Positions 3,985 to 59,405 of a DNA stretch of 64,000 nucleotides are shown one piece after another. The stretch covers positions 298,220,001-298,284,000 of the forward strand of contig NC_091471.1 of the NCBI RefSeq assembly GCF_036971445.1, in the 5' to 3' direction. A program made the position numbers and the translations under genes. This DNA comes from Narcine bancroftii. Taxonomy: Eukaryota. The notes under the pieces are model-generated. The model was not told the DNA's origin. It saw only the letters and a list, made by a program, of their open reading frames with translations, and ran no database searches. How positions within the stretch are numbered: position 1 is the first letter of the stretch; every line of letters begins with the position of its first letter.

Positions 3985-4470
3985 TGGATTCCCCTGGCAT
4001 CAATATACGCCAATGTCACTGTGGCAACGCCATTCCCCTGCCATCAACACCACAGCAATGTCACTGTGGCAATGCCATTCCCCTGCCATCAACACCACAG
4101 CAATGTCACTGTGGCAACACCATTCCCCTGCCATCAACAGTACGGCAATGTTAGTGTGGCATCGCCATCCCATGGTATTGATACCATGGTAATATCACCG
4201 CTGCAATGTTATTTTTCCCAATATCTGCATCACAGAAATGTCACCATGGTAATATCATTATTCCTGAATTGGCACCATGGCAAAATCACTGTGGCAACAC
4301 CATTCCACCAGCATCAACACCACAGCAATGTTACTTAGCAACACCACTCCCCTCAGTTCAACACCACAGCAATGTTACCTTGGCAACAGCATTCCCCTAG
4401 CATCAACACCATGGCAATGTTACCACAGTAACGCCTTTTCCCCATCAATTTTACCGCGGCAATGCCAGTC
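3985..4470. repeat. Degenerate 45-bp minisatellite (~10 copies)
   Basis: Unit cacagcaatgtcactgtggcaacaccattcccctgccatcaacac. Gives the 15-aa period NVTVATPFPCHQHHS in the ORF track. Confidence 0.9.
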
Positions 4471-7541: not shown

Positions 7542-7695
7542 TGTAGCGACGGCATCATGTGGGTCACCAAGCACGGGCTTCTGAGCCCGATGCCGAGGTC
7601 GGGAGGAAACCCCTGATAGCGCCATTTTGGCCGGCTGCCCCGTCGCGTGCGTGACAAGCGGGGTTGGTTTGCCTGCCTAATGGCAGACTGCCACA
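7542..7695 (-). repeat. Gypsy 3' LTR with internal deletion
   Basis: Aligns to 11244-11543 but lacks about 145 bp. Adjacent to the PPT. Confidence 0.9.
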
Positions 7696-7719
7696 CAGCA
7701 CCCCCTCCCTGACCCTGCT

Positions 7720-10500
7720 TTTTCGGTTGGGCCACAACTACTGGCTCAGTGGGGTCAAGGTGAGTTGGCTTTAACCTGTCCACCATAAACAGTTCCCTCT
7801 TACCACTGATGTCCAGTGTGAAAGTGGATCCTGAACGCTGGATGACTTTGTACGGCCCTTCCTATGGTCTGCGGTGGGGTGTGAAGGAGTCCAACTGGGC
7901 CCGGAGGCAGGAAAGTACACTGTGCAGTGACTGCACGGTGTTCAGTGAGGTGCGCTGAAGAACTCACCGGGTAGGGCTAGCGGTGCACTGTAAACCAGCT
8001 CGGCTGATGACGCCTGTAGGTCTTCTTTGGGTGTTGAGCAGATGCCCAGGAGCACCCAAGGCAGCTCGTCCACCCAGTCGGGGCCATTGAGGCGGGCCAT
8101 CAGTGCCGACTTAAGGTGGTGGTGCAATCACTTGACTAGCCCATTGGTAATAGGCTGTGGTGTGATGTAGCTCGATCCCCAGCCTGTTGGCGAGCTGTGC
8201 CCACAGCGCTGAGGTGAACTGGGCACCCCGATCACTGGTGAGGTGGTTCGGGATGCCAAACCAGGAAAACCAACTGTTCAAAAGCACTGGGGAGCAGGAG
8301 ATCGTGGAGGCATCTGGCATCGGGTTCGCCTTGGGCCAATGAGTGGTGCGGTCTACCACTGTGAAAAGGTAACGGTTACCTCGGGAAGCGGGTAAGGGTC
8401 CGACAATGTCCATATGTATCTGGCTGAACCATTCCCGGACGTGTTCAAAATCTTGTATGGGTGCTCTGGTGTGCCTGTGTACCTTGGAAAGCTGGCAATA
8501 GGTGCAGGTTGTGGCTCAGTCCACAATCTGCTTCCAAAGCCCATGCCAGATGAAATGTTCTGCCCATATGGACCTTGAACCTAATGGAAGGGTGGGAAAG
8601 GTCATGGATATGGTGAAAGCCTTGCCTGCACCAATGCTGGGGAACCACTGGACACGCACAGGATGGTGCCCTCACCATGAGGAGTTGGGAGGTCCTGGAA
8701 CCACAGGTCTGTGATGGCAGTCCTGAAGGCCCATGTCTCCTCGTTGGACTTCTGGTCCCGAGCAAGCTGGTCAAAGTCGAGGCCGGGTGTCAGCGCGCAA
8801 ATGGCCAGTCGTGGGAGTGCGTCGGCGACCACGTTGGCTTTTCCCGCCTTGTGCCGAATGTCGGTGATGAACTCCGACACGAAGGAGAGGTGACGCTGTT
8901 GGCGGGCCGACCGGGGATCTCTTGCCATAGCGAGTACCTGAATGAGGGGTTTGTGGTCGGTAAAAATGGTGAAAAACCACCCCTCCAAGAAATAGCGGAA
9001 ATGATGCACCGCCAGGTAGATGGCCAGCAACTCACAATCAAAAGTGCTATACTTGCACTCTGACGGGCGAAGAAGTTGGCTAATGAATGCCAGTGGTTTC
9101 CACTGTCCATTCGCCTGCTGCTCCAGGACAGCGCTGACGGCTATGGCAGAGGCATCAATGGAGAGCGCCATATGCAGGTCAGTGCATGGGTGGACGAGAA
9201 GGGTAGCCTTCGCGAGGGCATCTTTCGTGGCTTCAAATGCTCTGCTGGCCTCTGGAGTCCAAGCGAGTGTCTTGTCTTTGGCTGCGATGAGGGCGAAGAG
9301 CGACTTCATGATGCGCGCAGCACCTGGAATGAAGCGGTTATAGAAATTGACCATACTCGTGAACTCCTGTAGCCCTTTGATTTGTCTGGGCGAGAGAACT
9401 CCCTAACTGCAGTGACCTTTGTAGCAGCAGCTGTAGCTCCTTTGGCCATGATGGTATGACCCAGGAACCACATGGACTCTTTCCCAAACTGGCATTTGGC
9501 CGGATTGACCATTTGGCCGAAGTCGGCCAGTCGGGAGAAGAGGGTGCGCAGGTGAGACGTGTGTTGTGTCCGGTCTCAGCTGGCAACAAGGAGGTCATCC
9601 AGGTAAATGAATACGAAATTCAAATCCCTGCCCACTGTGTCCATGAGGTGCTGGAAGGTCTGGGCGGCATTCTTGAGCCCGAATGGCATGCGTAGGAACT
9701 CGAACAAGCCGAAAGCAGTGATGATGGCCGTTTTGGGTATGTCCTCAGGGTGCACCGGGATTTGGTGATACCCACGCACCAGGTCAACCTTGGGGAATAC
9801 CCTCGCACCATGCAGGTTGGCCGTAAAGTCCTAGATGTGAGGGATCGGGTAACGGTCAGGTACTGTTGCATTGTAAAGCCATCGATAATATCCGCAGGGG
9901 CGCCAGCCACCAGAGGCTTTCAGGACCAGGTAGAGTGGTGAGGTCCAAGGACTGTCGGAGTGTTGAATGATCCCCAGCTCCTGCAGATGTGAAAACTCTT
10001 CCTTCACTATCTGGAGCTTATCCGGCGGGAGCCAGCGTGCCTTGGCGTGGACCGGCGGGTCTTGGGTGGGTATGTAATGATGAGGCGGTGGAGAACTGCA
10101 GCTTGAGGAGGGACGGGACTCATCCAGGATACGCTAAAACTAATCCTTGAGCGTGCCGACAGTGGGAAACTGCGGCTGCTCTGTGAGGGAGGCATTGAGG
10201 TGAATGTCGACTAGGAGTTCGTGGGCGAGGAGGATGGTGGTTGGGAGTGACGAAACGGTGAACCTCCGCGAGAACTTCCGCTGGATGATCTGGAAGTGGA
10301 CGGTCTTGTCTCCATACGTTCTGATCTCCGCCAAATTGGCTGCACGGAGGGGAGGTCCTCGAGGCTGGTTCCAGGACTCGATGGCTGTGGCCGGAATGAC
10401 GCTGATCTGGGCCCCAGTGTTGACGAGGAAGCATCGGCCACTGACTGAATCCCGCAGGTAGAGAAGGCTGTGTTGTTGGCCAGCTGCCGCAGCCATTAAC
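7720..10500 (-). pseudogene. Gypsy pol pseudogene (protease, RT, RNase H, integrase)
   Basis: PR 'FLVNTGAQISVIP' (catalytic D>N); RT 'MPFGLKNAAQTFQ...IYLDDLLV'; RH 'IDASAIAV...TDHKPL'; IN 'DIVGPLP...SDRGAQFTS'. Split across frames. Confidence 0.93.
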
Positions 10501-11242
10501 AGCGGCCGGCCTGCCTGTTTCCCTGGAATGAGCAGGGCTGACAACACTTCTGAGCCTTGGCTCCCCAGCGCTGGTGGAAGAAGCAGAGGCGTGAAGTAGA
10601 TGGCTTGCTTCTAGCTATGCTCTTTGAGGACCCTGCAGGGGCCAGGTGTTCCACCGCAATGCAAAAGGAGGGCTTGGCATGGTCACGCCTGTGACTCGTA
10701 ACCTGCTGAACTCTCCGGAAATCGTTCGAGCCATAACTCCTGAGCCTTTGAGCGACCTTCCTAGGGTCGACAAAGCCCTCCTGGGACAGCAACGGCCGGA
10801 TGTCTTCAGGCAGATGGTCGAGGAAGATGCGCTCGAAGAGTGGGCAGTTGGTGTGATCACTCATGAGCATATCGTCCATCAACTCGATTAGAGTTCTGTC
10901 CCCAAAGGTGTTGAGGTGCAGCATCCAAGCAGCACGCTGGTGCCTGGAGAGGACGAGGAAGCCGGTGAGCACCTGCTCGATGGTCCCATACTCATCTTCT
11001 GTGGGTGGGTGCTGAATTAGAGGCTGTACTCGTTTGGCAGTGGCCTGGTCCAGGGCAGCGACCACATGATAGAACTTGGTTGAATCTGATGAAATCTGGT
11101 GGAGATGAAACTGAGCCTCTGCATGGCTGATCCAGGTCTCTGGCTCCTGAACCCAGAAGTCAGGAAGCTTGATGGCTATAGCGTTGATCGAAGGGTCATT
11201 CACGTCGGGTTCAATGACGTTTGAACCTGTCGGGGTCATCAA
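10496..11242 (-). pseudogene. Gypsy gag-like ORF (248 aa)
   Basis: 'IKLPDFW..EPETWISHAEAQF' N-terminus and C-terminal 'CFFHQRWGAKAQKC..PC' knuckle typical of this Gypsy gag type. Confidence 0.85.
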
Positions 11243-11243
11243 C

Positions 11244-11543
11244 TGTAGCGGTGGCTACACTGCTAACTGAAAGATCGCACAACCAGATGAGTTGAGTTCA
11301 GTGAGCAAAACTGATTTATTGCAGGCTACCTGGCTGGTCTTATACTCCCAGCCCGGACCCGGCTTAGAACTGTGGTGGGGGGGCCACAACGTCACCGGAG
11401 CATCACGTGGGTCATCAAGCGCGGGCTTCTGAGGCCGGTGCCGAGGTTGGGAAGAAACCCCCGATAGCGCCATTTTGGCTCGCTGCCCCGCCGCGCACAT
11501 GACAAGCGGGGCCAGTTCACCTGCCTAATGGCGAACCGCCACA
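11244..11543 (-). repeat. Gypsy 5' LTR (300 bp)
   Basis: TG...CA ends. Minus-strand TATAA (11340-11344) and AATAAA (11315-11320). Followed by the PBS. Confidence 0.92.
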
Positions 11544-12419
11544 GCTGAATGGAAAATAGATAAGATACAATTAAGAATCCCTTTTATATAGGATTTTTAT
11601 ACTTCTCAGATGTTTGTGTCTTATTCAATGATCCACAGTTAAAACCATCTTAACCTAGTTTATCTATAATAAAAAAAAATAGGAAAGAGAAAAACCCACA
11701 ACAATCCAACTCCTCCCTCTAAAGAAGATTAACGTATTAATTATATAGATATGAATCAAATAACAACTTTCAGATACCAGAGAGGGAGTCTCCGAGCATC
11801 CATACACCTTAAATATTCAAGTTGTGATAATAATCCATGAATTGGCCCCACATCTTATCAAATTCAAACTTTACACCTTTGATGTAACATCTAATTTTCT
11901 TTTTCCAAACTTGGGTAAGACATTATATCATCGTAACCATTAAATACGAGTAGGTGAAGAGCTATCTTTCCATTTCATCAGAATTGCTTGCCTAGCTATC
12001 AGCGAGGCAAAAGCTAAGATTATCTTTCGGGTCGAAGTCAAGGATGTATTCTCTTCTAGAGAAGAACCAAATAAACCAAAGGGCATGGTTCTAATTTAAT
12101 CTTCAGAATCATTGATAGTTTGGAAAACATTTTTCCAAAATTTTTCTAAATTAGGGCACTCCTAAAACATATGAATCAATGAAGCTTCAAAGATTTTTAC
12201 ATTTATCACCTAATGGATCAATATCAGAATAAAAACGTAATAATTATTTTAACATTGGGCGTGTATTCTATGTACCACATTAAATTGTAACAATGTCATG
12301 CACAAAATGAGGACCCATTAATTAAATTAAAAGTGGTGCCCCAATCTTCATGTGAAAGTGATATATTTAAATCACATTCCTCATCATTCTTAATCCCAAC
12401 CATTGAGACTGGGATTAAA

Positions 12420-33719: not shown

Positions 33720-34525
33720 TAGGCCCGGGGGGGGGGGGGGGGGGGCGGGGGGGTGGGCAGGATGTTCAAGAGGGGAAAGACAGGGGATTATGGTAGGAAA
33801 GGGGTCAAGAAAGGGGGCTGAGTGTGGGACTAAAGGGGACTGAATGGACGTGGGTGGTGGGATCAAGGATGAGGTGGGGAAGAGGTTGATGAGCATGGGC
33901 AGAGAGGTACATCTAGAAGGGGAAGTGTGGCATAGCAAGCTGGAGAGGCTGGGGTGGTGGAGGTGAAGAGGGGACACTATGCAAGGATCGAGTGGCATAG
34001 TAAAGGGAGAAATGAATGCAAATGGGAAATTGGTTGGGGAAAAGGAGTTAGATGCCATCACCTGTGGTTCAGAGAGGAGGTGAAGATTTGTAAGAGGGTT
34101 AGTGTAGGGGAGAAAGGAGATGGGATATAGTGCAGAAAGGTGAGGAAGAGAGGCAGATGAAGGAGGACAAGAGGGAAAAGAGGAAAGGGGTAAGAGTAAA
34201 GGTTGAAAATGGAGGAAAACAGAGCGGGGGAAACATAGAAAACCAATGAGATCAGATGAGAAAGGAGGAAAGATAGAATAGATGAGAAGGGTCAGGAATG
34301 AAAGGCATAGGGAAGGAAAGGGGAGCAGAAATAGTTGGCAACCTGGAGGTTTGCGAATGTGGGAACGAGAGGGGATGGCGATTGAGCAGTGAAAAAGGGA
34401 AAGGAGATGGAGATGAGAGGGGAGGCGGGTCATGGGGAGGCAGGGCCATGAAAATGGAGAGTGAGTGATTGTGAAAGAAAGAGGGCAATAGGTTCCAGGG
34501 AGATAAAAGAAGTGACACAGATAGA
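33720..34525. repeat. Purine-rich low-complexity tract starting with a ~30-nt G run
   Basis: + strand dominated by G/A with no clear unit. Abuts the GC tandem array. Confidence 0.8.
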
Positions 34526-37500
34526 GGGGGCGGCAGGCGGGGCAGGCGGCGGGAGCGGGGCAGGCGGGGGAGGCGGCGGGAGCGGGGCAGGCGGGGGAGG
34601 CGGCGGGAGCGGGGCAGGCGGGGGAGGCGGCGGGAGCGGGGCAGGCGGGGGAGGCGGCGGGAGCGGGGCAGGCGGGGGAGGCGGCGGGGAGCGGGGCAGG
34701 CGGGGGAGGCGGCGGGAGCGGGGCAGGCGGGGGAGGCGGCGGGAGCGGGGCAGGCGGGGGAGGCGGCGGGAGCGGGGCAGGCGGGGGAGGCGGCGGGAGC
34801 GGGGCAGGCGGGGGAGGCGGCGGGAGCGGGGCAGGCGGGGGAGGCGGCGGGAGCGGGGCAGGCGGGGGAGGCGGCGGGAGCGGGGCAGGCGGGGGAGGCG
34901 GCGGGAGCGGGGCAGGCGGGGGAGGCGGCGGGAGCGGGGCAGGCGGGGGAGGCGGCGGGAGCGGGGCAGGCGGGGGAGGCGGCGGGAGCGGGGCAGGCGG
35001 GGGAGGCGGCGGGAGCGGGGCAGGCGGGGGAGGCGGCGGGAGCGGGGCAGGCGGGGGAGGCGGCGGGAGCGGGGCAGGCGGGGGAGGCGGCGGGAGCGGG
35101 GCAGGCGGGGGAGGCGGCGGGAGCGGGGCAGGCGGGGGAGGCGGCGGGAGCGGGGCAGGCGGGGGAGGCGGCGGGAGCGGGGCAGGCGGCGGGAGCGGGG
35201 CAGGCGGCGGGAGCGGGGCAGGCGGGGGAGGCGGCGGGAGCGGGGCAGGCGGGGGAGGCGGCGGGAGCGGGGCAGGCGGGGGAGGCGGCGGGAGCGGGGC
35301 AGGCGGGGGAGGCGGCGGGAGCGGGGCAGGCGGGGGAGGCGGCGGGAGCGGGGCAGGCGGCGGGAGCGGGGCAGGCGGCGGGAGCGGGGCAGGCGGCGGG
35401 AGCGGGGCAGGCGGCGGGAGCGGGGCAGGCGGCGGGAGCGGGGCAGGCGGCGGGAGCGGGGCAGGCGGCGGGAGCGGGGCAGGCGGCGGGAGCGGGGCAG
35501 GCGGCGGGAGCGGGGCAGGCGGCGGGAGCGGGGCAGGCGGCGGGAGCGGGGCAGGCGGCGGGAGCGGGGCAGGCGGCGGGAGCGGGGCAGGCGGCGGGAG
35601 CGGGGCAGGCGGCGGGAGCGGGGCAGGCGGCGGGAGCGGGGCAGGCGGCGGGAGCGGGGCAGGCGGCGGGAGCGGGGCAGGCGGCGGGAGCGGGGCAGGC
35701 GGCGGGAGCGGGGCAGGCGGCGGGAGCGGGGCAGGCGGCGGGAGCGGGGCAGGCGGCGGGAGCGGGGCAGGCGGCGGGAGCGGGGCAGGCGGCGGGAGCG
35801 GGGCAGGCGGCGGGAGCGGGGCAGGCGGCGGGAGCGGGGCAGGCGGCGGGAGCGGGGCAGGCGGCGGGAGCGGGGCAGGCGGCGGGAGCGGGGCAGGCGG
35901 CGGGAGCGGGGCAGGCGGCGGGAGCGGGGCAGGCGGCGGGAGCGGGGCAGGCGGCGGGAGCGGGGCAGGCGGCGGGAGCGGGGCAGGCGGCGGGAGCGGG
36001 GCAGGCGGCGGGAGCGGGGCAGGCGGCGGGAGCGGGGCAGGCGGCGGGAGCGGGGCAGGCGGCGGGAGCGGGGCAGGCGGCGGGAGCGGGGCAGGCGGCG
36101 GGAGCGGGGCAGGCGGCGGGAGCGGGGCAGGCGGCGGGAGCGGGGCAGGCGGCGGGAGCGGGGCAGGCGGCGGGAGCGGGGCAGGCGGCGGGAGCGGGGC
36201 AGGCGGCGGGAGCGGGGCAGGCGGCGGGAGCGGGGCAGGCGGCGGGAGCGGGGCAGGCGGCGGGAGCGGGGCAGGCGGCGGGAGCGGGGCAGGCGGCGGG
36301 AGCGGGGCAGGCGGCGGGAGCGGGGCAGGCGGCGGGAGCGGGGCAGGCGGCGGGAGCGGGGCAGGCGGCGGGAGCGGGGCAGGCGGCGGGAGCGGGGCAG
36401 GCGGCGGGAGCGGGGCAGGCGGCGGGAGCGGGGCAGGCGGCGGGAGCGGGGCAGGCGGCGGGAGCGGGGCAGGCGGCGGGAGCGGGGCAGGCGGCGGGAG
36501 CGGGGCAGGCGGCGGGAGCGGGGCAGGCGGCGGGAGCGGGGCAGGCGGCGGGAGCGGGGCAGGCGGCGGGAGCGGGGCAGGCGGCGGGAGCGGGGCAGGC
36601 GGCGGGAGCGGGGCAGGCGGCGGGAGCGGGGCAGGCGGCGGGAGCGGGGCAGGCGGCGGGAGCGGGGCAGGCGGCGGGAGCGGGGCAGGCGGCGGGAGCG
36701 GGGCAGGCGGCGGGAGCGGGGCAGGCGGCGGGAGCGGGGCAGGCGGCGGGAGCGGGGCAGGCGGCGGGAGCGGGGCAGGCGGCGGGAGCGGGGCAGGCGG
36801 CGGGAGCGGGGCAGGCGGCGGGAGCGGGGCAGGCGGCGGGAGCGGGGCAGGCGGCGGGAGCGGGGCAGGCGGCGGGAGCGGGGCAGGCGGCGGGAGCGGG
36901 GCAGGCGGCGGGAGCGGGGCAGGCGGCGGGAGCGGGGCAGGCGGCGGGAGCGGGGCAGGCGGCGGGAGCGGGGCAGGCGGCGGGAGCGGGGCAGGCGGCG
37001 GGAGCGGGGCAGGCGGCGGGAGCGGGGCAGGCGGCGGGAGCGGGGCAGGCGGCGGGAGCGGGGCAGGCGGCGGGAGCGGGGCAGGCGGCGGGAGCGGGGC
37101 AGGCGGCGGGAGCGGGGCAGGCGGCGGGAGCGGGGCAGGCGGCGGGAGCGGGGCAGGCGGCGGGAGCGGGGCAGGCGGCGGGAGCGGGGCAGGCGGCGGG
37201 AGCGGGGCAGGCGGCGGGAGCGGGGCAGGCGGCGGGAGCGGGGCAGGCGGCGGGAGCGGGGCAGGCGGCGGGAGCGGGGCAGGCGGCGGGAGCGGGGCAG
37301 GCGGCGGGAGCGGGGCAGGCGGCGGGAGCGGGGCAGGCGGCGGGAGCGGGGCAGGCGGCGGGAGCGGGGCAGGCGGCGGGAGCGGGGCAGGCGGCGGGAG
37401 CGGGGCAGGCGGCGGGAGCGGGGCAGGCGGCGGGAGCGGGGCAGGCGGCGGGAGCGGGGCAGGCGGCGGGAGCGGGGCAGGCGGCGGGAGCGGGGCAGGC

Positions 37501-38347
37501 GGCGGGAGCGGGGCAGGCGGCGGGAGCGGGGCAGGCGGCGGGAGCGGGGCAGGCGGCGGGAGCGGGGCAGGCGGCGGGAGCGGGGCAGGCGGCGGGAGCG
37601 GGGCAGGCGGCGGGAGCGGGGCAGGCGGCGGGAGCGGGGCAGGCGGCGGGAGCGGGGCAGGCGGCGGGAGCGGGGCAGGCGGCGGGAGCGGGGCAGGCGG
37701 CGGGAGCGGGGCAGGCGGCGGGAGCGGGGCAGGCGGCGGGAGCGGGGCAGGCGGCGGGAGCGGGGCAGGCGGGCGGGAGCGGGAGCGGGGCAGGCGGGGA
37801 GGGGGCGGGAGCGGGGCAGGCGGGGAGGGGGCGGGAGCGGGGCAGGCGGGGAGGGGGCGGGAGCGGGGCAGGCGGGGAGGGGGCGGGAGCGGGGCAGGCG
37901 GGGAGGGGGCGGGAGCGGGGCAGGCGGGGAGGGGGCGGGAGCGGGGCAGGCGGGGAGGGGGCGGGAGCGGGGCAGGCGGGGAGGGGGCGGGAGCGGGGCA
38001 GGCGGGGAGGGGGCGGGAGCGGGGCAGGCGGGGAGGGGGCGGGAGCGGGGCAGGCGGGGAGGGGGCGGGAGCGGGGCAGGCGGGGAGGGGGCGGGAGCGG
38101 GGCAGGCGGGGAGGGGGCGGGAGCGGGGCAGGCGGGGAGGGGGCGGGAGCGGGGCAGGCGGGGAGGGGGCGGGAGCGGGGCAGGCGGGGAGGGGGCGGGA
38201 GCGGGGCAGGCGGGGAGGGGGCGGGAGCGGGGCAGGCGGGGAGGGGGCGGGAGCGGGGCAGGCGGGGAGGGGGCGGGAGCGGGGCAGGCGGGGAGGGGGC
38301 GGGAGAGGCGCAGGCGGGGAGGGGGCGGGAGAGGCGCAGGCGGGGAG
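34526..38347. repeat. ~3.8 kb compound G-rich minisatellite (27-, 18- and 26-bp units)
   Basis: GGCGGCGGGAGCGGGGCAGGCGGGGGA (~34545-35340), GGCGGCGGGAGCGGGGCA (~35340-37770, ~135 copies), GGGGGCGGGAGCGGGGCAGGCGGGGA (~37780-38347). Confidence 0.98.
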
Positions 38348-38349
38348 CA

Positions 38350-38975
38350 CGCTGCTTTTCCTCCCTCCCGCCTTTTCCGACGGGGAAAGACAGGCGGCGG
38401 GAACGGGATGGGAGGGGAGGGCTGGGGGTGCGGCCACCATCAGGGGTCCGCCGCGGGCTCGCCACCCCACACGGTTACCTGGGTCACGCAGAGCGGAGAG
38501 AACATCATGTCGGCCTCGGATCATCCAGAAGTCACGGCATCACCGTGACATCCCGCCTCAGTGTCTAAATCCCAGCTCCGCCCGCGGACGGAGACGGAGA
38601 GGGAGGGAGGGACGGCCGAGGGGCAGGCGCTGGGGGAAGCGGCTCCGGAAGCGGCGCTGCTGTGGCAGGCGGGGGGAGCCCGCCCCAGGGGGACCAACCG
38701 CCCGCCTCCACCCCCAGTCTCGGGTCCCCGGTCCGGCCGATCAGCGCGACCGTCCGGCGGACAGCGCTCGGCGCGACCGGACTCTCCGGCTGTCACTGCC
38801 CGGGGACACCGAACCCGCGAGACTTGACATTCACGGCACCCAAACTGTCCCGCGCCGGGTCACCCACTGGCACAAGCGCCGTGGGTCGCCGCGAGGGCCC
38901 GCAGCCCGCCCCGTGATGCCGCGTAACCCGGCCGTGCCGCGAGGGCCGCCGCCTTTCCCGCTCCTCTCTCCCCCG
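38350..38975 (-). promoter_or_regulatory. CpG island: 5' UTR and promoter of the NFI-family gene
   Basis: Non-repetitive, very GC- and CpG-rich sequence around the first coding exon, with GC boxes (ccgccc) and CCGGAAG. Confidence 0.8.
38479..38508 (-). CDS. NFI: Nuclear factor I (NFI/CTF) family transcription factor, first coding exon (MMFSPLCVTQ); paralogue unresolved (NFIB- or NFIC-like)
   Basis: ATG ATG TTC TCT CCG CTC TGC GTG ACC CAG|GTAACC. Matches the NFI exon-1 peptides recalled from human genes (NFIB MMYSPICLTQ, NFIC MYSSPLCLTQ, NFIA MYSPLCLTQ), with the same phase-0 intron after Q. Lies in a CpG island. Exon 2 is outside the window. Confidence 0.88.
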
Positions 38976-39213
38976 CCATCAAGTAGCAGGGAGCTCAAGG
39001 TCCACCCACCCCCCCAACATTAAGAAGCAGGGAGCTCAAGGAAGCCCCCCCCGCCATTAACTAGAAGCAGGGAGCTCAAGGAACCCACCCCCCTCGCCAT
39101 CAAGAAGCAGGGAGCTCAAGGACCCCCCCCCCCCCGCCATCAAGAAGCAGGGAGCTCAAGGAACCCCCCCCCCCCCGCCATCAAGAAGCAGGGAGGTCAA
39201 GGAAGCCCCCCTC
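38972..39213. repeat. ~40-bp minisatellite, 6 copies
   Basis: cgccatcaagaagcagggagctcaagg followed by a variable C-run. Confidence 0.92.
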
Positions 39214-40673
39214 TTCCCAGAAGGAGTGCGGCATCGCTCAGGTGTTGTCCCCCACCCACAGCGAGACAGAGTCGCCGCAACAATGATGCGCTGCCCCACA
39301 AAACCACCCCGCTATGGGGGCACTGAAAAGACGGCTCCTCAAATAGATATATATCGCAATGGAGGGGAGTCTCCGGCTGACGAGTGGACATGAATGGTGT
39401 CCTTACAAACAGCCCATGTCAGGGAGGAAGGGGGACATGAAGTGTTACAAATGATATCGAGAGTTTCCTCCACCGAATAGCCAGCCCATGTTATCATTAA
39501 AGATCAAAATTGGACTCCACTTCGCCCAGAAAACCGACACACTGTTTCCTTGAGCAAACGACAACACGCTTATATAACTACAAACCTGGCCAACAAATCC
39601 GTAGGCACAAAACACAGCCATTTATTTTAGAGACATGTCTGATCTCTTAAATATAAAGTGCTTTATGAATTTGGCACGTTCTCTCATTTTTCTCGTGACG
39701 CCATGTGCAATATCTCTTCCCTCCCCCTTTAGTGAGTCAATGTTGACCACAATCACACCACCACCATAGATATAAATGTTCACTCCGAATGCGAAGATTT
39801 CATCAAAAATCCAAAGGGGGACCAATTTCGGGGCAGGACAAGTCATTCCGCGAACCGTTTCAAATATGACCGACCAGACAGAGACCGGGTGAACTGCACA
39901 GATCAAAACTCTTCTCACTTTGATACTGTTACAAAACACGGCCCTACGTCTTGAAGAGAGACGCAGAAATCGGAGTGGACAGTATTTGATTCCGAGGGGC
40001 ATTGAAGGGAGGGAAGTTGAGCATTCCTGAACGTTTCAGTATTTGCAATTAACGCCAGGGCACTTCTAAATGCTCGCGGTGAATTGAAATAACTTGTTTC
40101 TCGACCATTAAACATCAAATCATAAAACCAGGGGGAGGGCGGGGGAACCCTCCCTTTTATTCTCAGAACTGTCAATACAGGCTGGAAAATCTATTTTTAA
40201 AATTACTTCGAAATAGACCCCACGTCTCCCTTGTGCGCCCTGGCTTAAAATACACCTTTTAAAATCGAAATTGTGATTCTTAAATGAGAGGTCTATATAC
40301 ACTGGAGAAGACTATGGTGTGAGCAAAAAAGCCGGCGACTGGGTTCGCTGTACAGGCCGAACAAGATGCAATGGCCCTTTAAAAGGGAGTGGGTTAGAAA
40401 CGCGTCCCAGTCTTGGTGGCCCGCGTCTCGGTTCCCGAGTCAGGTTGGCTCCTCGGCCATTGCCGCTACGATCAAACACTGGGAATTGGGCTTGAAATGT
40501 ACGTAGGCAAATGTACACGTCTACAGATCACGCAGAAATTCATTTCAGCTGGCAAGCAAACTGCTCGCAGATGGGAAATCTGCCAAGCTCAGCGCTTTTG
40601 CTTTCTGTCTCTCTTCCCCCCCTCCCGCCTCCCCTTCAAACACCACCAAATCTTGGCGCAAACCCGATCTCAC

Positions 40674-40900
40674 CATGCAACAGAGAGAGAGAGTAGCGAC
40701 TGCAAGGCAGACGGCAGAACCAATGCATCGGCCGGCCGGGGCACCGAGATATACGTACCATTGCCATGAGAAAGTACGTAATCAACTTGCAGCCGAATTA
40801 AAAGCGTGGCTAACGCTTCATTTGTATTCCCTTGCAATTCTCTACTTCATCCAGAGGAATATTTCCCTTCCGACTTGGCTGTGTTGTGTGTGCAGATGAG
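40674..40900 (-). other. Candidate upstream alternative first exon(s) of the NFI gene (Met-only or MAM)
   Basis: ATG|GTGAGA at 40676-40674 and ATGGCAATG|GTACGT at 40767-40759, both phase 0. NFI genes have known MDEFHPF isoforms from Met-only upstream exons. Confidence 0.5.
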
Positions 40901-41170
40901 TGTGGGGGGGGGGGGGGTTAAAAAAAACTCGCTGCTTCTATCAAATCCGATGTAAAAGTGCAGGCAATCGGTGGGTCCTGATTGCCCAGCCAATCGATGG
41001 GGGAGGGCTCCTTCGGCTGCTTTAGTGATGAGTTGATGGCGTAGTATAAAAATATTACAGAAGTAAAACGAGCTGTTTATTTCCGCAATGGCTTATTTGC
41101 ATAGGGAAATCACTTCGTCACCATATTAAGTTTTTTTCCCCGCACTCCTTCCTTGCTAAAAACGATTGGG
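40900..41170. promoter_or_regulatory. Putative distal, possibly bidirectional promoter
   Basis: CCAAT 40990-40994, TATAAAA 41045-41051 (+), octamer ATTTGCAT 41095-41102, ATTGG ~41165, all in CpG-retaining unique sequence. Confidence 0.4.
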
Positions 41171-42989
41171 TGCATCCCCACCAACCCCCCCCCCCCCCCT
41201 CTCTTTTGCCAGTGAAATAAACCCGAGCATTATTCCCAAGCCCCGTCTGTGCACGTTGTCATCGTACTGCAAATGATCGCTCAGCGAGAACACGTGGTAT
41301 GTCCGGGGCTGTGGCGTTCTCTGCTGGTTACAGTTTTGGGGAAATACACTTTTTTTTCACCCATAAAAACAATGCGTGGGTGCTCTTTGCCAACCATTTC
41401 AGAAGAAACCGTGCCCTAAAAAAAAAGCTGCCATTCACCTAAAATGATTTTTCATCAGAGAGGCAAATTTTAAAAGATGGAGTGATGCAGCAGGGCCGAG
41501 AGAATGATGTATTAAAATAGAGATGACAACATTCACGTGGATGGCAGATCCTTATGACCAGAACCGTCCCATTACTGCACAGGGAAACATCCCTTCAATT
41601 TACAGCATGGAATGGAGGACATGCCAACAAGTTAGCATGGAGAAATGGTCTGATGTGCACAGTACACTGGGTGCGCCTTTCCATAACTTAATTGTCATTT
41701 TGTTTGTTTGAGGGGTTGGGAAAGAATGAGAAAGGGTTTTTTATAACATGACTCGATCTCCTGCTGTGTAATTTTTTTTGTAAAATCAAGAAAAGTACAA
41801 CAGTTCAGCTGCAACTTCTATCCAAGAATATTTACCTTGAGTTTCATTTCATTCGGGACATGGGTAGGTTCTTCAGGCCCCAGGTCCGGTTTCAGATGAT
41901 GTACCTCAGGCCCCTCCTTGGAACATGCATTAATAACAAAAAAAAAATTTTTCAAGGTTTGCTTCTTGAAAAAATCATTGGGGATTACGATAGACAACTG
42001 AATACAAAGGTAATTTCAGATTTGCTTTATCACGTGTGAAGTTGGGAAACGTTAAATGAACTTTTATTGAATGTATCATGTTTAATACTGACAGCGTTAG
42101 TTCAACTGACCTAAAAATGTTTCGTCGCTGATTTTCTTTTGTACTCGGCCTCTTGTGCCAGTATCCAATAATAGTCGGCCAGCATTGATGGATTCCAGTT
42201 ACCTTGATCCATGATGCCGCTTTTCCATGGTCACAGTGTCCTGGTGAAACCTTACACCATGTTCCTCACTGACTGCACCAGGATCAGCGGGCAAGTCCAA
42301 ATGTGAATGCAGAAAATGACTTTTCAGTTACATGTTACACTTTATGGGGTTGTATGGTTGAAGTAGTCTTAAAATATGACAGGGAATCGCAAAAATAGGT
42401 TATTTTTTTAAAGTACACGATAGGAAAATTTTAAGGCGATTTTCTTGATCAGCAGCCATAAAATGCACCTAAAAGTTTTCATATTATTGCTCTTGCTTTG
42501 GCATCATTGCATATACCAGAAAACGCTGCAACCCTCAACGGGTTGGGCAACACCTGTGGGAAGAGGATCAGAGCGAACGTTCTCATCTCCCATATTCTGC
42601 TCAATTGCTAAGTGGTTCCAGCAAGTTCTAGGCTTACTTTTGTTGTCCAGAATCTGCAGCTCTGACTTTCAAAAAGTTTGTCAGACCCTTCCTTTCAAGA
42701 GGATTGGAAATTCCTCGCACTTTCTGCTTTCACTCCCAAACGGTCCACACCTGATTTTTGGGTTGGGCCATCCCTGGCCAGATTAACGCTGGTCAAATCA
42801 CCAACTGGTCATGGAAAATTTAAGCAACAAATTCCAAGGATTGCCTTTCAATACAAATTTGGCCACACTAATGCACGGATCTCCCCCGCCCTTTAACCTG
42901 CCAAACCCAACGGTTTATAAATGATGAAACGCGAATTACGCTCTCACAAGGACAATCAAGAAGTTAATAGATCATAATGTAAATATCGG

Positions 42990-43830
42990 AAAACACAAAA
43001 GTCTGCGGACGCCGTGATTCAAGTCAAAGCACAGATATGCGCAGGAACCTTGCCGGTTTCACAGCGTCCAGAAAATAAAAAAATATATATTACTGTGTTT
43101 CGGGCCTGAGCCCTTCTTCAAGGTATAAACAAAAAGTTGGTAGCCATCTGAGAGTGCCTAGGCCCAAAACGTCGGTATATATGTTATTCACTTACTGAAT
43201 TGCATGATCTTCCCAAGATTACTGCACATAATCAAAACGAGTGACCAAAAAATGTACAAGGTGCATGATGCGTACAGGGTAAAGATGGTCGCAGTGAAAA
43301 TTCTCTAGCGAAACGAACACCGATTAACACTACACCCTGAGAAAGGCAAGCAACAACTCATTTTCTACAACAGATGCAGTCGAACTCAAATTAGGAACAA
43401 GGTTGGGAGAAATGCAGCAACTTGACAAGAGCTTCTTTAAAAACGTTACACCGAATCCAGTTTGGAGAGGATTTGGCTTAATTGTGCTCAACAGGAAAAT
43501 TCTCCAGACGCTGGGATTGATACCTTGACGAAGAGCTCAGATTCAAAACGTTGATCACCCTTCACTTCCTAAAGTGACCTGCTGAGTTGTTACAGCACTT
43601 TTGTGTTTGGCTCAATAGTTCAACGTCAAACAATTTAACAACATTGTGTTGACCCCGCCAGCAGTCCCACCGACTTGAGGGAGGGGAGGGGGGGGGGCGG
43701 CGAAGAGACATAAAGCTGAAGAAACTCAGCGGGTCAAAAGCAAACATAAAGATACATGACTAACGTTTCAGGCTTGAGCCCTTCATCAAGGTTGGATAAA
43801 GTCACCACATTGTCTGCAGACTTTCGTGCT
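42990..43830. mobile_element. Cluster of four Penelope pseudo-LTR fragments in alternating orientation
   Basis: Hammerhead-like cores at 43095-43123 (-), 43147-43176 (+), 43521-43555 (+) and 43761-43791 (-). Confidence 0.7.
43757..43793 (-). ncRNA. Minimal type-I hammerhead ribozyme-like motif (Penelope-associated)
   Basis: Minus strand CCTTGATGA-A-GGGC-TCAA-GCCT-GAAACGTTA: core (C/T)TGANGA...GAAA, helix II hairpin and palindromic AACGTT helix III. Helix I is imperfect. Confidence 0.5.
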
Positions 43831-46049
43831 TTACCCCTGACTTAAGGGGGGCCTTGCGGTCTGCCAAATCTTTCATAATTAGCTGCAATTTTAATCCATG
43901 TTTATTCTTCAAGAGAAATTAAAGCATTGAACCCCGGCTTTCGCGCAACCTGCTGTCCGGCCCCGCAAATTGCCGGCAAGTCCTGCGGAGCGCTGCGTGG
44001 CGTTTTGGATCACTGGGCGGTTTTAATATTTTAAAAGAAATGTCTCAAAACACGAAACACTGCAGATGCAGAAAGAACATCTAGAAACACATCAGCAGAT
44101 CTGGCAGCATCTAGAGAGAGAGAGAGAAACAGTTATATTTCAGGATCTTTCATCTGTATTGTTGGCACTTTCTCTATTTATTTCATACAATTTCTCGTCC
44201 CACTGCCATAATTCGGAAGCGGAACTTCATTCTGCTTCGGGCAAGCGGGCAGTTCTCGGAAGCCAGTGACTGGGAAATGGCTGGTCCGCAAACCTCAATC
44301 CACGCTTTCTAGCTGAACAGCAATAACCAATGTTTAGCTAAATGAGACCAAAATGTGTTGGTGCCAACCACCGCCTATTCGTGACACACTAACAGCAAAC
44401 TCGGGAGAATGAACGATTGAGGAGCTTTTGTTAAATTGTTAAGAAATTACCCCCAAGTAATGGACGGAACAAGTTTTGGAAACCGCTGAAAGTCCTTCAT
44501 GGGACAGAGATAATGGAGATTGTAAAGATGTGGTTGGACTCCGCACGCATTAGTTATCTCAAGATCCTGAGGATGGGGCGAAAAGGGTTTGATGTTCATT
44601 CACCTGTGGTTTACACGCGTCTAGTCTCCAGTGGCCTACAGGAAGGATCCTTTCAATTACACAGCTAAGTGTTAACCTCCTGCTGGCAGGGTATTGCTTT
44701 TTGCCAGTTCACAAGATAGACTGTCCGGACTGCCAAGTTCAATCAAATTTCAATAAATAACGCCAGATTTCTGATTATACAGAAATTGAGAAAACAATTG
44801 TAGAATCATTTATATTTCGTTTGTTCCACTCGTAATATTGGGAAGTTAAACCAAGGCAGGAGTTAGATAATAGATGGCAGGTCTCTGGAAAGTGTTGTAG
44901 AGCAAAGAATTCGGGGTACACAGTTCCCTGAGAGTGAGAAAGGCGTTTGGCGCGCATGCCTTCATTGGGCAGGGTGCAGGACAGTCCCTGTCATTCAGAA
45001 ACGTTGGCGAGACCGCACTTGTATCGTGCGCAGAGCTGGAAAGGTTTCAGAAATGATTCACGAGGATCATTTAAACAACATTTAGGCAGGTACATAAACA
45101 GGAAAGGTTTAGAGGTACATGGTAATAAAAACACAGAAATGCTGGAGAAACTCAGCTGGTCTCGCAGCGTCGATAGGAGGTAAAGCTATATTACCGACGT
45201 TTCGGGCCTTCAATGGGACTAGCCCAGGTCGCATTGTCTTTCAGTGCTGAACAGGTACAACTCTTTATTTAAAAGTGATACCCATCACTAAGTATTACCT
45301 ACATTTGAATAGTGTCGTTTGTCAATGTCGGGACAAAAAAAAACCCTGCAGTTGGAGGTTCAAGAACAGTTTGTGATGAACTGCTCCCCTGATCATGAAC
45401 TACTCCCCCACCACAAAATGACTGCACTATTGCACGGCGTTAACTACGAATATTTATTACCCACCCATCTTATTTATTTATTGTCTTTTTAAAAAAAATA
45501 CATTTACTTATAGTTTTAACCAGTATCTGTTTGGATACAGTGGGGGGGGGGGGGTGGTGCACGAAATAATAACATTGTTATTATTCAATTATTCAGGTTA
45601 TTTTGGGGTAGTTTTGCTAATTAGTGAGATCACTTGTTTCTGAATACTATCTCCGACAGAACGAAACAAAATATTCAGTTGGAAGCAATTTGGATATTGC
45701 TTTCTCAGATTGCAGGGGGCTCGGACGAAGTATTATTTTTAATCTCCCAATTTTTAATGGGTTTTTAATTAAACAAATGGAAACGATTAAACAAGGATGT
45801 CATTAAAACAATCACTGCATCGTTTTAGAGGATCTCAAGAGTCGCTCGAGGAAAGATGCGGAAAATACAATGTTTTCAGAAAGGGGTCAGGGAACTCGCA
45901 GGGATATCGAAACAATATTGATCAGATCTTACGCATTGCCACGGAGAAAAGCTGATCATTTCAAACTTCACGTTTGCAAAGGGTCGCGACGACAGACAAG
46001 GCGCATCCGTTTCCGATCGTTTACATTTATTTTGTAACACTTTATTGAC

Positions 46050-46550
46050 TGATTTGTGGGGGGGGGGGGGGGGGTGAAACACACGCAACAACCGTGCGGA
46101 TGGTGGTGAGGGTGCGAAAAGGGGACGGAGTCTGTCGCGGGAAACGGGCTGGTGAGCGATTAATGGGGAACTAAAGGGACCAGTGGTAGGTGAATGGGAG
46201 TGATATTGGTCGGAGAAGGAAGAGGTTCTAGGGAGGGGGCTCAATGGCGATGTGAGTGGAGATGGGAAATTAGTTGAAGCAGGGAGGATTCGCGGGGGAG
46301 AGAGGGTTAATAAGGGATGAGTGGGAAAATAAATTGGTGGAGAGAGGGGTCTTCGTGGGTGAATTGGAGGGAGACGGGATTAATTGGAAAAGGAGGTTAT
46401 GGGCAGGGGTTGGTGATTAAAAGGAGCAGGGGATTATTGTGAGGGCGGAGTAAATGGAAAGAGGCGAGTGGGAGAAGCAGGTTAACTAACGGGGAGGGGG
46501 GTATTGGCGGGATAGGTGTCAGTGTGGGGAGGGGGAATTAAGGGATGATT
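46050..46550. repeat. Purine/G-rich low-complexity tract
   Basis: + strand G/A-dominated with no clear unit. Confidence 0.7.
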
Positions 46551-47309
46551 GCGATTATGTCCAGCACGTTTTACGGCGGCGATTCACACAAGAGTCTCCC
46601 TTCGGCAAAGTTTAGAGCGGAGAGAGGGGGGTGGGGGGTGGGGGGTGGGTGGTGTGAATACACTAGAAACAGGGGAAAGTTCCTCAACTTCTTTCAAACA
46701 TTGCCAGTAAAAAAAAATCCTCAAGAAATATCTAAATATTCAATCTCAAAAAAAGTTACAAGACCTCAACATATTCAGCGGTCCTGGGGGGAGGTGGAGG
46801 GGGGTGGGGGGAGAGGTCCCCCCCCCCCTGAATACCTTTAAAAATATGTTTGTCTGTTCTCATTCAATCTAGTAAAGCTAAGATATGTTTTGCACGCCTT
46901 CCTGGAACTCATAAACAATTAGCAGCATTGATTCCGCGGTAACACCTCCTTTTTACATCGCGATTGAGGTCTTTGAGTTGGAACTGAGGCTGTACCAAGA
47001 GCCCCGCAAACCTGGCTGTTCTCTTAATTGGCCTTAAACAATGTTTAGGATTTCCATCCTGCGCGCACATTTATTGAAACATTGTTTAGGAACCGCACTT
47101 TTATGAAACTATAGAAAGCGTGAAAGGTGACAAAATAGCTGATAATGTCAAATGTTACAGAGTCCTCGGATTCTCAATGCAGCCTCCAGGCGTAGTAGTG
47201 AATTTATACGATTCGTTTAATTTTATCCTTCACCTTCTTTGGGTAAAGTTAGAGAAAACGAAATGGCTCAGGAAGGCAGATTATGGTTTTAATGAAATAT
47301 ATGGTTTAT

Positions 47310-48200
47310 ATTCAAAAGGTTAGCAGACCTAGGACTTTTCTCTTTGGAGAAGAGAAGACTTGATAGATGTCTACAAGATTCTGAGAGGCATAGCTAGTGG
47401 TTTCCACCCCCCCCCCCCCCCACCCCCGCCAAACGGAATTAGCAAACGCCTGAGGATATCTGTACAAAATGAAGGGAGAAAAGTTTAGGGGAAACGTCAG
47501 GGGTAAGTTTTTCACACAGAGAGTTGTTGGGGTCTGGAATGCCTTGCTGGGGGTAGTGGTGGAGGCTGGAATATTAGAGGTATTTAAGAGACTCTTAGCA
47601 TCGAGTCCACGCTGCTGAAGATCCAGCTGCGCTGGGTGGGTCACGTCTCCAGAATGGAGGACCATCGCCTTCCCAAGATCGTGTTATATGGCGAGCTCAC
47701 CACTGGGCACCGTGACAGAGGTGCACCAAAGAAGAGGTACAAGGACTGCCTAAAGAAATCTCTTGGTGCCTGCCACATTGACCACAGCCAGTGGGCTGAT
47801 ATCGCCTCAAACCGTACATCTTGGCGCCTCACAGTTCGGCGGGCAGCAACCTCCTTTGAAGAAGACCGCAGAGCCCACCTCACTGACAAAAGACAAAGGA
47901 GGAAAAACCCAACACCCAACCCCAACCCACCAATTTTCCCCTGCAACCGCTGCAACCGTGCCTGCCTGTCCCGCATCGGACTTGTCAGCCACAAACGAGC
48001 CTGCAGCTGACGTGGACATTTACCCCCTCCATAACTCTTCGTCCGCGAAGCCAAGCCAAAGAAAGAGACCAGCGCATGGATGAAAGAAAAATACAGGGTT
48101 AAGAGGTAGGAATGCTTTAGTCTATTTTTGGTAGGAATATATAGGTTGGCACAACATCGTGGGCTGAAAGGCCTGTACTGTGCTGTAATGTTCTATGTTA
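47310..48200 (+). mobile_element. CR1 3' fragment interrupted by an RTE
   Basis: CR1 3' sequence at 47310-47597 resumes at ~48066 and ends in gttctat. Confidence 0.8.
47598..48066 (+). mobile_element. 5'-truncated RTE-clade LINE
   Basis: Open ORF C-terminus 'GHVSRMEDHRLPKIVLYGEL...CNRCNRACLSRIGLVSHKRAC' with the gccaagccaaagaa tail. Confidence 0.92.
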
Positions 48201-57464: not shown

Positions 57465-59405
57465 GGTGAATCCACGAATACCCACCACTCTCTCAATAAA
57501 AAAAGTCCCCCCTCATGTTTCCTCTAAACCTTTGCCCCCTCACTCTCAACTCATGTCCTCCTGTTTGTATCTCCCCCCTTTCTTAAAGGAAAAAGCCTCT
57601 CCAGGTCAACTCTATCTTTCCCCCTAATAATTTTAAATACCTCAATCAAATTCCCTCTCAACCTTCTACACTCCAAAGAATGAAGACCTAACTTATTTAA
57701 CCTTTCTCTATAACAGACCCCGTAATCCTGGCAACATTCTAGTAAATCTTCTCTGCACTCTCTCCAATTTGTTGATAGCTGTCCTATACTTTGGCCTCAC
57801 CAACGCCTTGTGCAATTTTAACATAATATCCCAGCTCTGATTTATAAATGCTCTATCCGGGCTAAATCCCTCTGCAAGCTTTGAAACCCTTCTTCACCGT
57901 CCACAGCTCCGCCTTCTTTAGTATCATCCGCACACTTATTAATCCAATTTATCACCCCATCATCCGGATCATTAATATATATGATAAATAATAATGGACC
58001 CAATACTGAACCCTGAGGCACACCACTAGTCAATGGCTTCCAATCTGACTCTGGCATTTCCCATTCAATCATTGTTGAAACTATTTTACTACTTCAATGT
58101 TATACCTAATGATCGAACCTTCCTAACTAACCTTCCCTGAGGAACCTTATCAAAGACCTTACTAAATTCCATACATATAACATCTACTGCCTTACCCTCA
58201 TCAAATTTCCAAATAACCTCCTCAAAAAATTCAATAAAGTTTGTCAAACATGATCTTTCCCTCACAAAACCATGTTGACTGTTCCTAATCAAACCCTGCC
58301 TATCCAAATATTTACATATGCCATCTCTAAGAATACTCTCCATTAACTTACCTACTGCTGACGTCAAACTTACAGGCCTATAATTACTGGATTTACTCTT
58401 AGCGCCTTTTTTAAACAATAAAACTACATGGGCTACCCTCCAATCCTCTGGCACCAATCCCATTACTAATGACACCTTAAATATCTCCGTCAAAGCCCCT
58501 ACTATTTCTATACTAACCTCCTTTAAGGTCTTAGGGAACATCTTGTCAAGACCTGGAGACCTATCCACCTTTAGTTTTCTTAAAAGCACCAGTACTTCCT
58601 CTTCTTTAATCATCATAATTTCCATGACTTCCCTTACTTTACACAGATCAATATCCTTCTCCTTAGTAAATAATGAAAAAAAAACTGTTCAAAATCACCC
58701 CCATCTCTTTTGGCTCCACGCATAGCCGTCCACTCTCATCCTCTTCGGGATCAATGTTATCCCTCACTATACCTTTGCTCCTAAATTCTCTGTAAAAACC
58801 CTTTGGATTTATTTTCACCTTACTTAACAAAGCAACATCATATCTCCTCTTAGCCTTTCTAATTTCCTTCTTAAGTTTCTTTTTACATTCTTTATATTAC
58901 TCTAACACCTCATTTACTTCATGCTGTCTACCCTTTTTGTACAACTCTCTCTTTATCTGAACCATATTTCCAAAAACCTTTGAAAACCAAGGCTCCCCAA
59001 AACTTTCAACCTTTCCCTTCATGCTAACAGGAACACACCATCTCTGTACCCTTAAAATTTCACCTTTGAATGCATTACATTTTCCTTCTACATCCTTCCC
59101 ATAAAACAATTTATCCCAGTTCACACCTTCCAAATTTATTCTCATCTCCTCAAAATTAGCTTTCTCCAAACCAAAAATCTCAACCCTAGGTCCAGACCTA
59201 TCTTTCTTCATAGTGTTGTGATCACTGGACCTAAAGTACACCCCAACGCACCTCCGCCTCCTTTCCAAATAGGAGATCCAATACTGCCCCTTCTCTAGTT
59301 GGTACCTCTATATATTGATGTAGAAAACTATCCTGTACACATTTAGTAAACTCCAAACCATGTCCCAGTCAATGTGTGGGAAGTTAAAAATCTCCTTCAA
59401 TCACA
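57465..59405 (-). mobile_element. CR1 LINE ORF2 remnant with internal deletions
   Basis: 'SNYRPVSLTS', 'SQHGF..RSCLTN', '[17 protein letters not shown]', 'CADDTK' and the APE end 'SDHN'. Confidence 0.92.

Follow-up and report, generated by a model that had tools for sequence, protein, structure and literature searches.

How does a vertebrate gene come to carry almost four kilobases of pure, CpG-saturated tandem repeat just behind its first exon, and is that repeat more than a passenger? The question is raised by 64,000 nucleotides of Narcine bancroftii DNA (NCBI RefSeq assembly GCF_036971445.1, contig NC_091471.1, positions 298,220,001 to 298,284,000 of the forward strand), further called the window, in which a tandem array of 3822 bp with 89% GC (34526-38347, confirmed as present in the assembled sequence) lies in intron 1 of an NFI gene. 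The array is probably a pure, strand-skewed, GC-rich minisatellite that has recently grown at the edge of a CpG island and that is removed, as a near-neutral passenger, together with intron 1 of a spliced NFI gene. This reading is supported by the block structure of the array and the one-step relations between its units, by the absence of substitutions within the blocks (191 distinct 31-mers among 3792), by read contigs for the 26-bp block, which give 23-28 copies against the 20 assembled, and by a correct exon 1-exon 2 junction in one public run together with the absence of GT and AG from the sense strand of the array. Additionally, a precedent for such blocks is found in the minisatellite MSY1 (PMC2599865), and the class as a whole is common (PMC3486850).

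The array was parsed on a 12-bp core common to its units, which occurs 185 times between 34551 and 38300 and does not recur in the window outside the array. This parsing bears out an earlier sequence-only reading, in which three related units of 27, 18 and 26 bp with a common core were recognized. Along the + strand, four 27-bp units are followed by one of 28 bp, 18 of 27 bp, two of 18 bp, five of 27 bp, 134 of 18 bp, a 25-bp junction unit, 20 units of 26 bp and two variant copies of the 26-bp type. The blocks are pure for their unit type, save for a pair of 18-mers that forms an island within the 27-bp block, and the 28-bp unit is a 27-mer with an extra G. Of the simpler picture drawn before, i.e., three blocks with some 135 invariant 18-mers, the blocks and the lack of 18-mer variants stand, but the main 18-bp block counts 134 copies and the 27-bp block also holds the 28-bp unit and the 18-mer island. 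As had been noticed, the + strand of the array is free of T (the longest T-free run on this strand in the window spans 34523-38352) and each 18-mer, GGGAGCGGGGCAGGCGGC, carries three CpGs, so that 401 of the 593 CpGs of the array are situated in the 18-bp block. The GC skew is about 0.5 at a GC fraction of 0.89, and the Tandem Repeats Finder (TRF) score is 5701, compared to at most 319 for other repeats in the window. With tandem units of 18, 26 and 27 bp, the array falls within the 10-100-bp range of minisatellites, and its GC content above 50% with strand bias places it among the GC-rich ones.

The units are related by single steps. Two substitutions, the same in both variant copies, separate these from the 26-mer; between the 26-mer and the 27-mer lie one substitution and a single G; and the 18-mer lacks 8 or 9 bp adjoining GGC compared to the 26- and 27-mer, respectively. 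Within the 3775 bp of unit blocks there is no substitution at all, the chance of which is 0.02 at an independent divergence of 0.1% and 5e-4 at 0.2%. It is therefore likely that the array is young and has undergone recent turnover. The undecayed CpGs had been taken to imply either recent expansion or a lack of germline methylation. The youth of the array agrees with the former, but the argument on methylation does not hold: since all sites are intact, those outside CpGs included, turnover alone explains the intact CpGs and methylation status is not indicated. The variant copies, which had been proposed as the seed of the array, share both differences and hence form a duplicated pair. They are present and fit a seed, but a derived pair fits too, as the direction of change does not follow from the sequences; the pair may thus be either.

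A mechanism that would account for these features starts with new units that each arose once and were then copied locally, at a rate exceeding that of point mutation. Either slippage or unequal sister-strand exchange, acting at the margin of the promoter CpG island, would have driven the growth. Turnover, mostly in the 26-bp block, may be aided when the G strand folds into G-quadruplexes (G4) during replication. In MSY1, blocks of variant units likewise change by small gains and losses, which are ascribed to intra-allelic processes (PMC2599865). The length of the array probably varies between individuals, while splicing would remove the array along with the intron and leave it a near-neutral passenger.

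The host gene was identified by comparing four of eight public runs (X1, X5, X6 and X7) with positions 38290-38965; of the other four, X2-X4 come from the sample of X1. The label of X5 and X6 as RNA is a guess, as no run is recorded as RNA, although the splice junction in X6 points to it. A 517-nt contig of X6 matches 38478-38965 without a difference and then continues outside the window, on the - strand, as DEFHPFIEAL (28 letters are visible past the junction). In human NFIX, the same peptide comes directly after the first-exon peptide (PMC12634031), and the first-exon peptide of the present gene, MMFSPLCVTQ, is identical at 7 of 10 positions to an NFIB-derived peptide (PMC9816309). A short first exon that ends in TQ and is spliced to DEFHPFIEAL, as in NFI genes, is thus present, with exon 2 outside the window. 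The junction in X6 shows that this is an expressed, spliced NFI gene, that the donor is used and that 131 bp of intron 1 precede the array, which agrees with the distance of about 130 bp given by the sequence-only reading. The double Met at the start resembles NFIB, but ten residues are too few to decide between the paralogs A, B, C and X. X5 covers the same 488 bases as the X6 contig, so the leader measures at least 457 nt. Positions 38359-38473 are uncovered in X5 and X6, a blank that carries no evidential weight. X7, from a second organism, contributed one 151-nt piece (100% identical, depth 2) and leaves the exon and the start of the intron uncovered; the piece is uninformative and possibly carry-over. 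A PDB search with the 20-residue exon 1 read-through returned no NFI chain and one chance match (E 1.5). The background CpG observed/expected ratio of the window, 0.25, fits a vertebrate, and its interspersed repeats seem to be of the kind known from cartilaginous fishes. With 0 GT and 0 AG dinucleotides on its sense strand, the array introduces no canonical splice site.

Read support for the length of the array comes from collapsed contigs. At a word length of 31, a pure 26-bp cycle predicts a 56-nt contig with exactly two differences over 38290-38331. In X1, whose unique depth is 4.42, one contig of 56 nt reaches a depth of 99.8 and has two differences there, and we infer from the match in length and difference count that it represents the 26-mer cycle. 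The depth ratio amounts to 22.6 copies, or 28 when another low-copy contig is used as reference, against 20 assembled, a difference within noise at a depth of about 4. Both variant copies (38301-38347) are matched without difference by X1 contigs. X5 and X6 contain 56-nt contigs with 2 and 4 differences, as predicted for a pure 26-mer cycle; X6 holds both the spliced exon 1-exon 2 RNA and the contig with 4 predicted differences. Contigs of 18- or 27-mer cycles are absent among the matches listed (29 of 56 pieces). As the longest exact match to the compared stretch is 12 bases for the 18- and 27-mer versus 22 for the 26-mer, such contigs may not align there. One 57-nt piece (depth 2.8) shows 6 differences where a pure 27-mer predicts 5, and is counted neither way. 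Over 38290-38335 in X1, 28 of the 32 contigs are short, G/A-rich and less than 90% alike, with a summed depth of up to 850 against 4 for unique sequence, a hint that this genome is well stocked with short G-rich repeats.

Together with the native promoter island, the array forms a single CpG island of 5.2 kb (34121-39310, Takai-Jones criteria). The claim that it extends the island several-fold was correct: 3822 bp and 593 CpGs are added to 963 bp and 87 CpGs, which is an approximately five-fold lengthening. Around 20 Sp/KLF boxes had also been predicted, and 21 copies of the Sp/KLF-type 8-mer GGGGCGGG were indeed counted, but this is no more than roughly one for each copy in the 26-bp block. 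It is GGCGGGA (186 in the array) that occurs about once per unit, the E2F core (PMC4686757), which 8-13% of shuffled units carry as well.

The G4 propensity of the array was predicted with G4Hunter and with ViennaRNA with G4 formation switched on. G4Hunter scores are at least 1.2 in all 25-bp windows of the array, compared to 3% of windows elsewhere, with means of 2.38 in the 26-bp block, 1.96 in the 27-bp block and 1.67 in the 18-bp block. All three main units accommodate four G3 runs in a span of 30 nt (PMC3486850), the 18-mer needing 27 nt. The shortest loops between G3 runs measure 1-1-3 in the 26-mer, 3-5-7 in the 27-mer, 3-8-3 in the 18-mer and 12-1-1 in the variant. The 26-mer, with four tracts of at least three G per unit, has the strongest predicted motif, while the 18-bp block has 0 G3N1-7 matches. 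The idea of a G4-forming array is thus supported throughout by the predicted scores, but not by this motif in the 134-copy block. In yeast, only loops of at most 3 nt drove minisatellite instability (PMC6614823). By this rule for minisatellites of the CEB1 type, the 26-mer qualifies, and the 27-mer, the 18-mer and the variant fail. The two differences in the variant copies break one G4 tract; a step from variant to 26-mer would complete a short-loop G4, a candidate trigger of expansion.

The orientation of the array limits what these structures could do during transcription. NFI is transcribed from the - strand, which confirms that the G strand is its template strand. The sense RNA is 80% pyrimidine, contains no A and folds weakly without a predicted G4. 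It is thus not the G-rich sense RNA that forms G4s and R-loops at C9orf72. Co-transcriptional G4s and R-loops arise where the non-template strand is G-rich (PMC12455608). In the present gene both that strand and the RNA are C-rich, which argues against a C9orf72-like mechanism. Such a route would apply here only to a hypothetical antisense transcription. The coordinates of all features are collected in Table 1.

Table 1. Features of the array, its flanks and NFI exon 1 (positions in the window).
Feature	Positions	Strand	Remarks
Aperiodic purine-rich tract	33760-34522	+	77% A+G, 7 CpG; adjoins the array with the same strand bias
Left partial unit	34526-34550	+	
27-bp block	34551-35343	+	27-mer (27 copies), with a 28-bp variant at 34659-34686 and a pair of 18-mers at 35173-35208
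18-bp block	35344-37755	+	134 identical copies
25-bp junction unit	37756-37780	+	between 18-bp and 26-bp blocks
26-bp block	37781-38300	+	20 identical copies
Two variant 26-type copies	38301-38347	+	second copy partial
Native promoter CpG island	38348-39310		963 bp, 87 CpG
First 131 bp of intron 1	38348-38478	-	donor CAG/GTAACC, GT at 38478-38477
Coding part of NFI exon 1	38479-38508	-	MMFSPLCVTQ (10 codons)
5′ leader of exon 1	38509-38965	-	identical contigs in X5 and X6; reaches at least the end of the compared stretch
1364-codon frame	34430-38524	-	predicted frame only; from an out-of-frame ATG through donor and array in unspliced RNA

Several observations weigh against a recently grown, near-neutral array. 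One allele of one species lies behind this reading, and the read support is restricted to the 26-bp block and the variant copies, while the 18- and 27-bp blocks make up 85% of the length. Among the three blocks, copy number falls from 136 to 28 to 20 as the mean G4Hunter score rises from 1.67 to 1.96 to 2.38; as the block with the weakest G4 potential is the longest, G4 is not clearly the main driver. Neutrality is questioned by the position beside an NFI gene of an array with about seven times the CpGs of the native island, since the NFI family is dosage-sensitive in mammals, with NFIA and NFIB being haploinsufficient (PMC13637464), and GC-rich VNTRs (variable number tandem repeats) are over-represented among those linked to methylation (bioRxiv 10.1101/2020.12.16.423078). 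Moreover, a 384-nt contig in X5 (depth 8.1) contains a second junction, from exon 1 (38477-38507) to sequence outside the window. This junction, whose joined sequence is GC-rich and begins with GT, may reflect an alternative exon, a skipped-to exon or a contig error. A sequence of 89% GC with one purine-rich strand is hard to sequence, and it has to be considered that the array exists while its length or purity is partly a product of assembly, the 18-bp block being inflated or its variants polished away. X1 has a unique depth of about 4 and may itself be the source of the assembly, in which case its support is not independent; the read comparison covers the 26-bp block and the variant copies; and the lone 28-bp unit may be a homopolymer error. 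However, the 26-bp block and both variant copies agree with read contigs in letters and in copy number, and the two-18-mer island and the unique junction unit do not look like what a collapsed or looped consensus would leave, which makes such an artefact quite improbable. A functional alternative is that the array is a cis-acting VNTR tuning NFI dosage by its length, through methylation spreading into the island, through the number of GC-box and E2F-type sites, through polymerase passage over a G4-prone template or through the selection of the exon to which exon 1 is joined. Its location 131 bp from the first donor and contiguous with the island, the added 593 CpGs, 186 GGCGGGA and 21 GGGGCGGG motifs and the second junction in X5 all suit this role, and there are human precedents in the methylation-linked VNTRs and in the donor-side VNTR of ABCA7, of which longer alleles lead to more skipping of the next exon (PMC5954066); intronic VNTRs affecting expression or splicing have been reviewed (PMC12776774). 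Yet the case is argued from position and motifs, and the motifs are expected from composition, given the share of shuffled units that carry GGCGGGA. Only a small part of human VNTRs is linked to nearby methylation (1,480 of approximately 70,000 tested, with GC above average; bioRxiv 10.1101/2020.12.16.423078), and the X5 junction is a single contig with a 31-nt match, whereas X6 has the canonical exon 1-exon 2 junction only. Tuning of dosage by the array is therefore considered unlikely.

An expanded allele comparable to those of C9orf72 or FMR1 would go further, by silencing the gene or by yielding repeat RNA or protein, e.g., (RRLPRS)n from intron-retaining RNA. Size, purity, CpG load and the first-intron position invite the comparison, 26-mer contigs are found in both RNA-labelled runs, and an out-of-frame ATG at 38524 precedes the NFI start by 16 nt. 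Its predicted frame runs for 1364 codons across the array, where the 18-bp block would encode (RRLPRS)n, and in spliced RNA it overlaps the NFI coding start. The array cannot hold a stop codon, though, and 30% of lead-in shuffles stay open, so that an open frame is expected. Moreover, the ATG has a weak context (T at -3), and the only match of the frame is to the proline-rich model Drf_FH1, below the cut-off. Three more upstream ATGs, at 38830, 38551 and 38540, open 29, 3 and 2 codons. Repeat protein requires intron retention, and each copy of the 26-mer has 1.5-3% of the depth of the exon, although expression is poorly measured by contig depth. In addition, a C-rich sense RNA, weakly folding and free of predicted G4, is made, whereas the mechanism needs a G-rich non-template strand (PMC12455608). 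As for silencing of the FMR1 type, the gene is not seen to be fully silenced, since correctly spliced NFI RNA is present in X6 alongside the 26-mer repeat. The analogy with the C9orf72, CSTB and FMR1 expansions that was put forward in the sequence-only reading is not sustained by these results, and we hold a disease-like allele to be extremely unlikely. Elements of these views can be combined: a CpG-saturated repeat would act as a length-dependent rheostat on NFI, two base changes in a two-copy seed would have started expansion by completing a short-loop G4, array length would shift splicing of exon 1 from the DNA-binding exon to the X5 exon or back, and intron-retaining RNA would give (RRLPRS)n protein. 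This combination is very improbable. The preferred reading thus remains that of a recently grown minisatellite, probably a near-neutral passenger of intron 1.

Other elements of the window were recorded as well. The purine-rich tract left of the array is the sole such stretch of at least 500 bp in the window outside the array. It is not recognizable as a decayed array, as its periodicity of 0.371 does not stand out from that of shuffles (0.366 ± 0.008). A viral origin of the array was also considered; neither viral nor metagenome contigs contained an exact match to the doubled 18-mer (0 in each), i.e., there was no sign of it at that strictness. Rfam yielded 0 families in the window. At the promoter side, a second tandem repeat (38970-39211; 40 bp, six copies, 84% identity) has G/C runs of variable length and, lying just upstream of the covered 5′ exon, may be part of the promoter or leader. 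Upstream of exon 1, at 39400-47500, the CpG observed/expected ratio is 0.70 at 44% GC over 8 kb, compared to 0.25 elsewhere. Judged by this composition it looks like a broad low-methylation domain, in which two GC-rich patches (40261-41060 and 45931-46720) could represent additional promoter elements. Intron 1 additionally contains a 45-bp tandem repeat (3988-4420; 9.7 copies, 71% identity) and, on the - strand at approximately 7550-11550, a decayed, CpG-rich Ty3/gypsy-like long terminal repeat (LTR) element with broken frames, terminal repeats visible by eye and Pfam matches to DUF7041, RT_RNaseH and rve. A reverse transcriptase fragment of a long interspersed nuclear element (LINE; Pfam RVT_1) lies upstream of the NFI gene at 58089-58688 on the - strand. 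The window yielded no neighbouring gene.

As an ordinary minisatellite, the array is likely a polymorphic marker, and it is a clean record of how new units (variant 26, 26, 27 and 18) arise and spread in blocks. It also illustrates that an NFI promoter island can adjoin 3.8 kb with about 600 extra CpGs while the gene still yields spliced RNA. If its length were to alter methylation, elongation or exon choice, the array would offer a natural setting in which to test what separates GC-rich expansions that silence genes from those that do not, with blocks of differing G4 strength in one array. Should the combined rheostat reading be true, it would be a natural, tolerated counterpart of the human repeat-expansion loci in a wild vertebrate. 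Among the papers listed, a set outside which most subscription papers and supplements fall, there was no report of this array and no paper on an NFI gene containing the word VNTR.

The known systems resemble the array in different respects. The C9orf72 GGGGCC, FMR1 CGG and CSTB dodecamer repeats are GC- and CpG-rich pure arrays at a promoter or in a first intron, the CSTB dodecamer being C-rich on the sense strand. Compared to these three, the present array has longer units and its gene has spliced mRNA, and its sense RNA is C-rich, unlike that of C9orf72. MSY1 is AT-rich, with variants of equal length. It is also haploid and hairpin-prone, whereas the present array is GC-rich with units that vary in length; what both have in common is contiguous variant blocks with small islands of another type (PMC2599865). 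The VNTR in intron 18 of ABCA7 has a C-rich 25-bp unit beside a splice donor and alleles of up to 10.7 kb (PMC5954066). The array is similar in its C-rich sense strand and its donor at 131 bp, but it is located in intron 1 beside a promoter and, while ABCA7 units contain the donor GT (PMC5954066), its own units neither include nor duplicate a donor. The classical 16-bp hypervariable core (PMC9069542) is matched at 13 of 16 positions, GGGCAGG included, by all three main units. With P values of 0.017 for the 18-mer, 0.068 for the 27-mer, 0.092 for the 26-mer and 0.42 for the variant (20,000 shuffles each), this resemblance appears mostly compositional.

A further resemblance is to the human minisatellites CEB1 (39 bp), CEB25 (52 bp, intronic) and HRAS1 (28 bp), which share with the array units of 10-100 bp, high GC content, G/C strand bias, kilobase length and tandem G4 motifs (PMC3486850). 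Such repeats are common, as 18,906 of 353,460 human minisatellites contain a G4 motif and 504 contain at least 30 (PMC3486850). The array differs from these three in its GC content (89% versus 56-77%) and far higher number of CpGs (PMC3486850), in the three unit lengths arranged in pure blocks and in adjoining a promoter CpG island. By the criteria of the same study it is a GC-rich G4-motif minisatellite, distinguished by its purity, its CpG load and its position beside an NFI gene.

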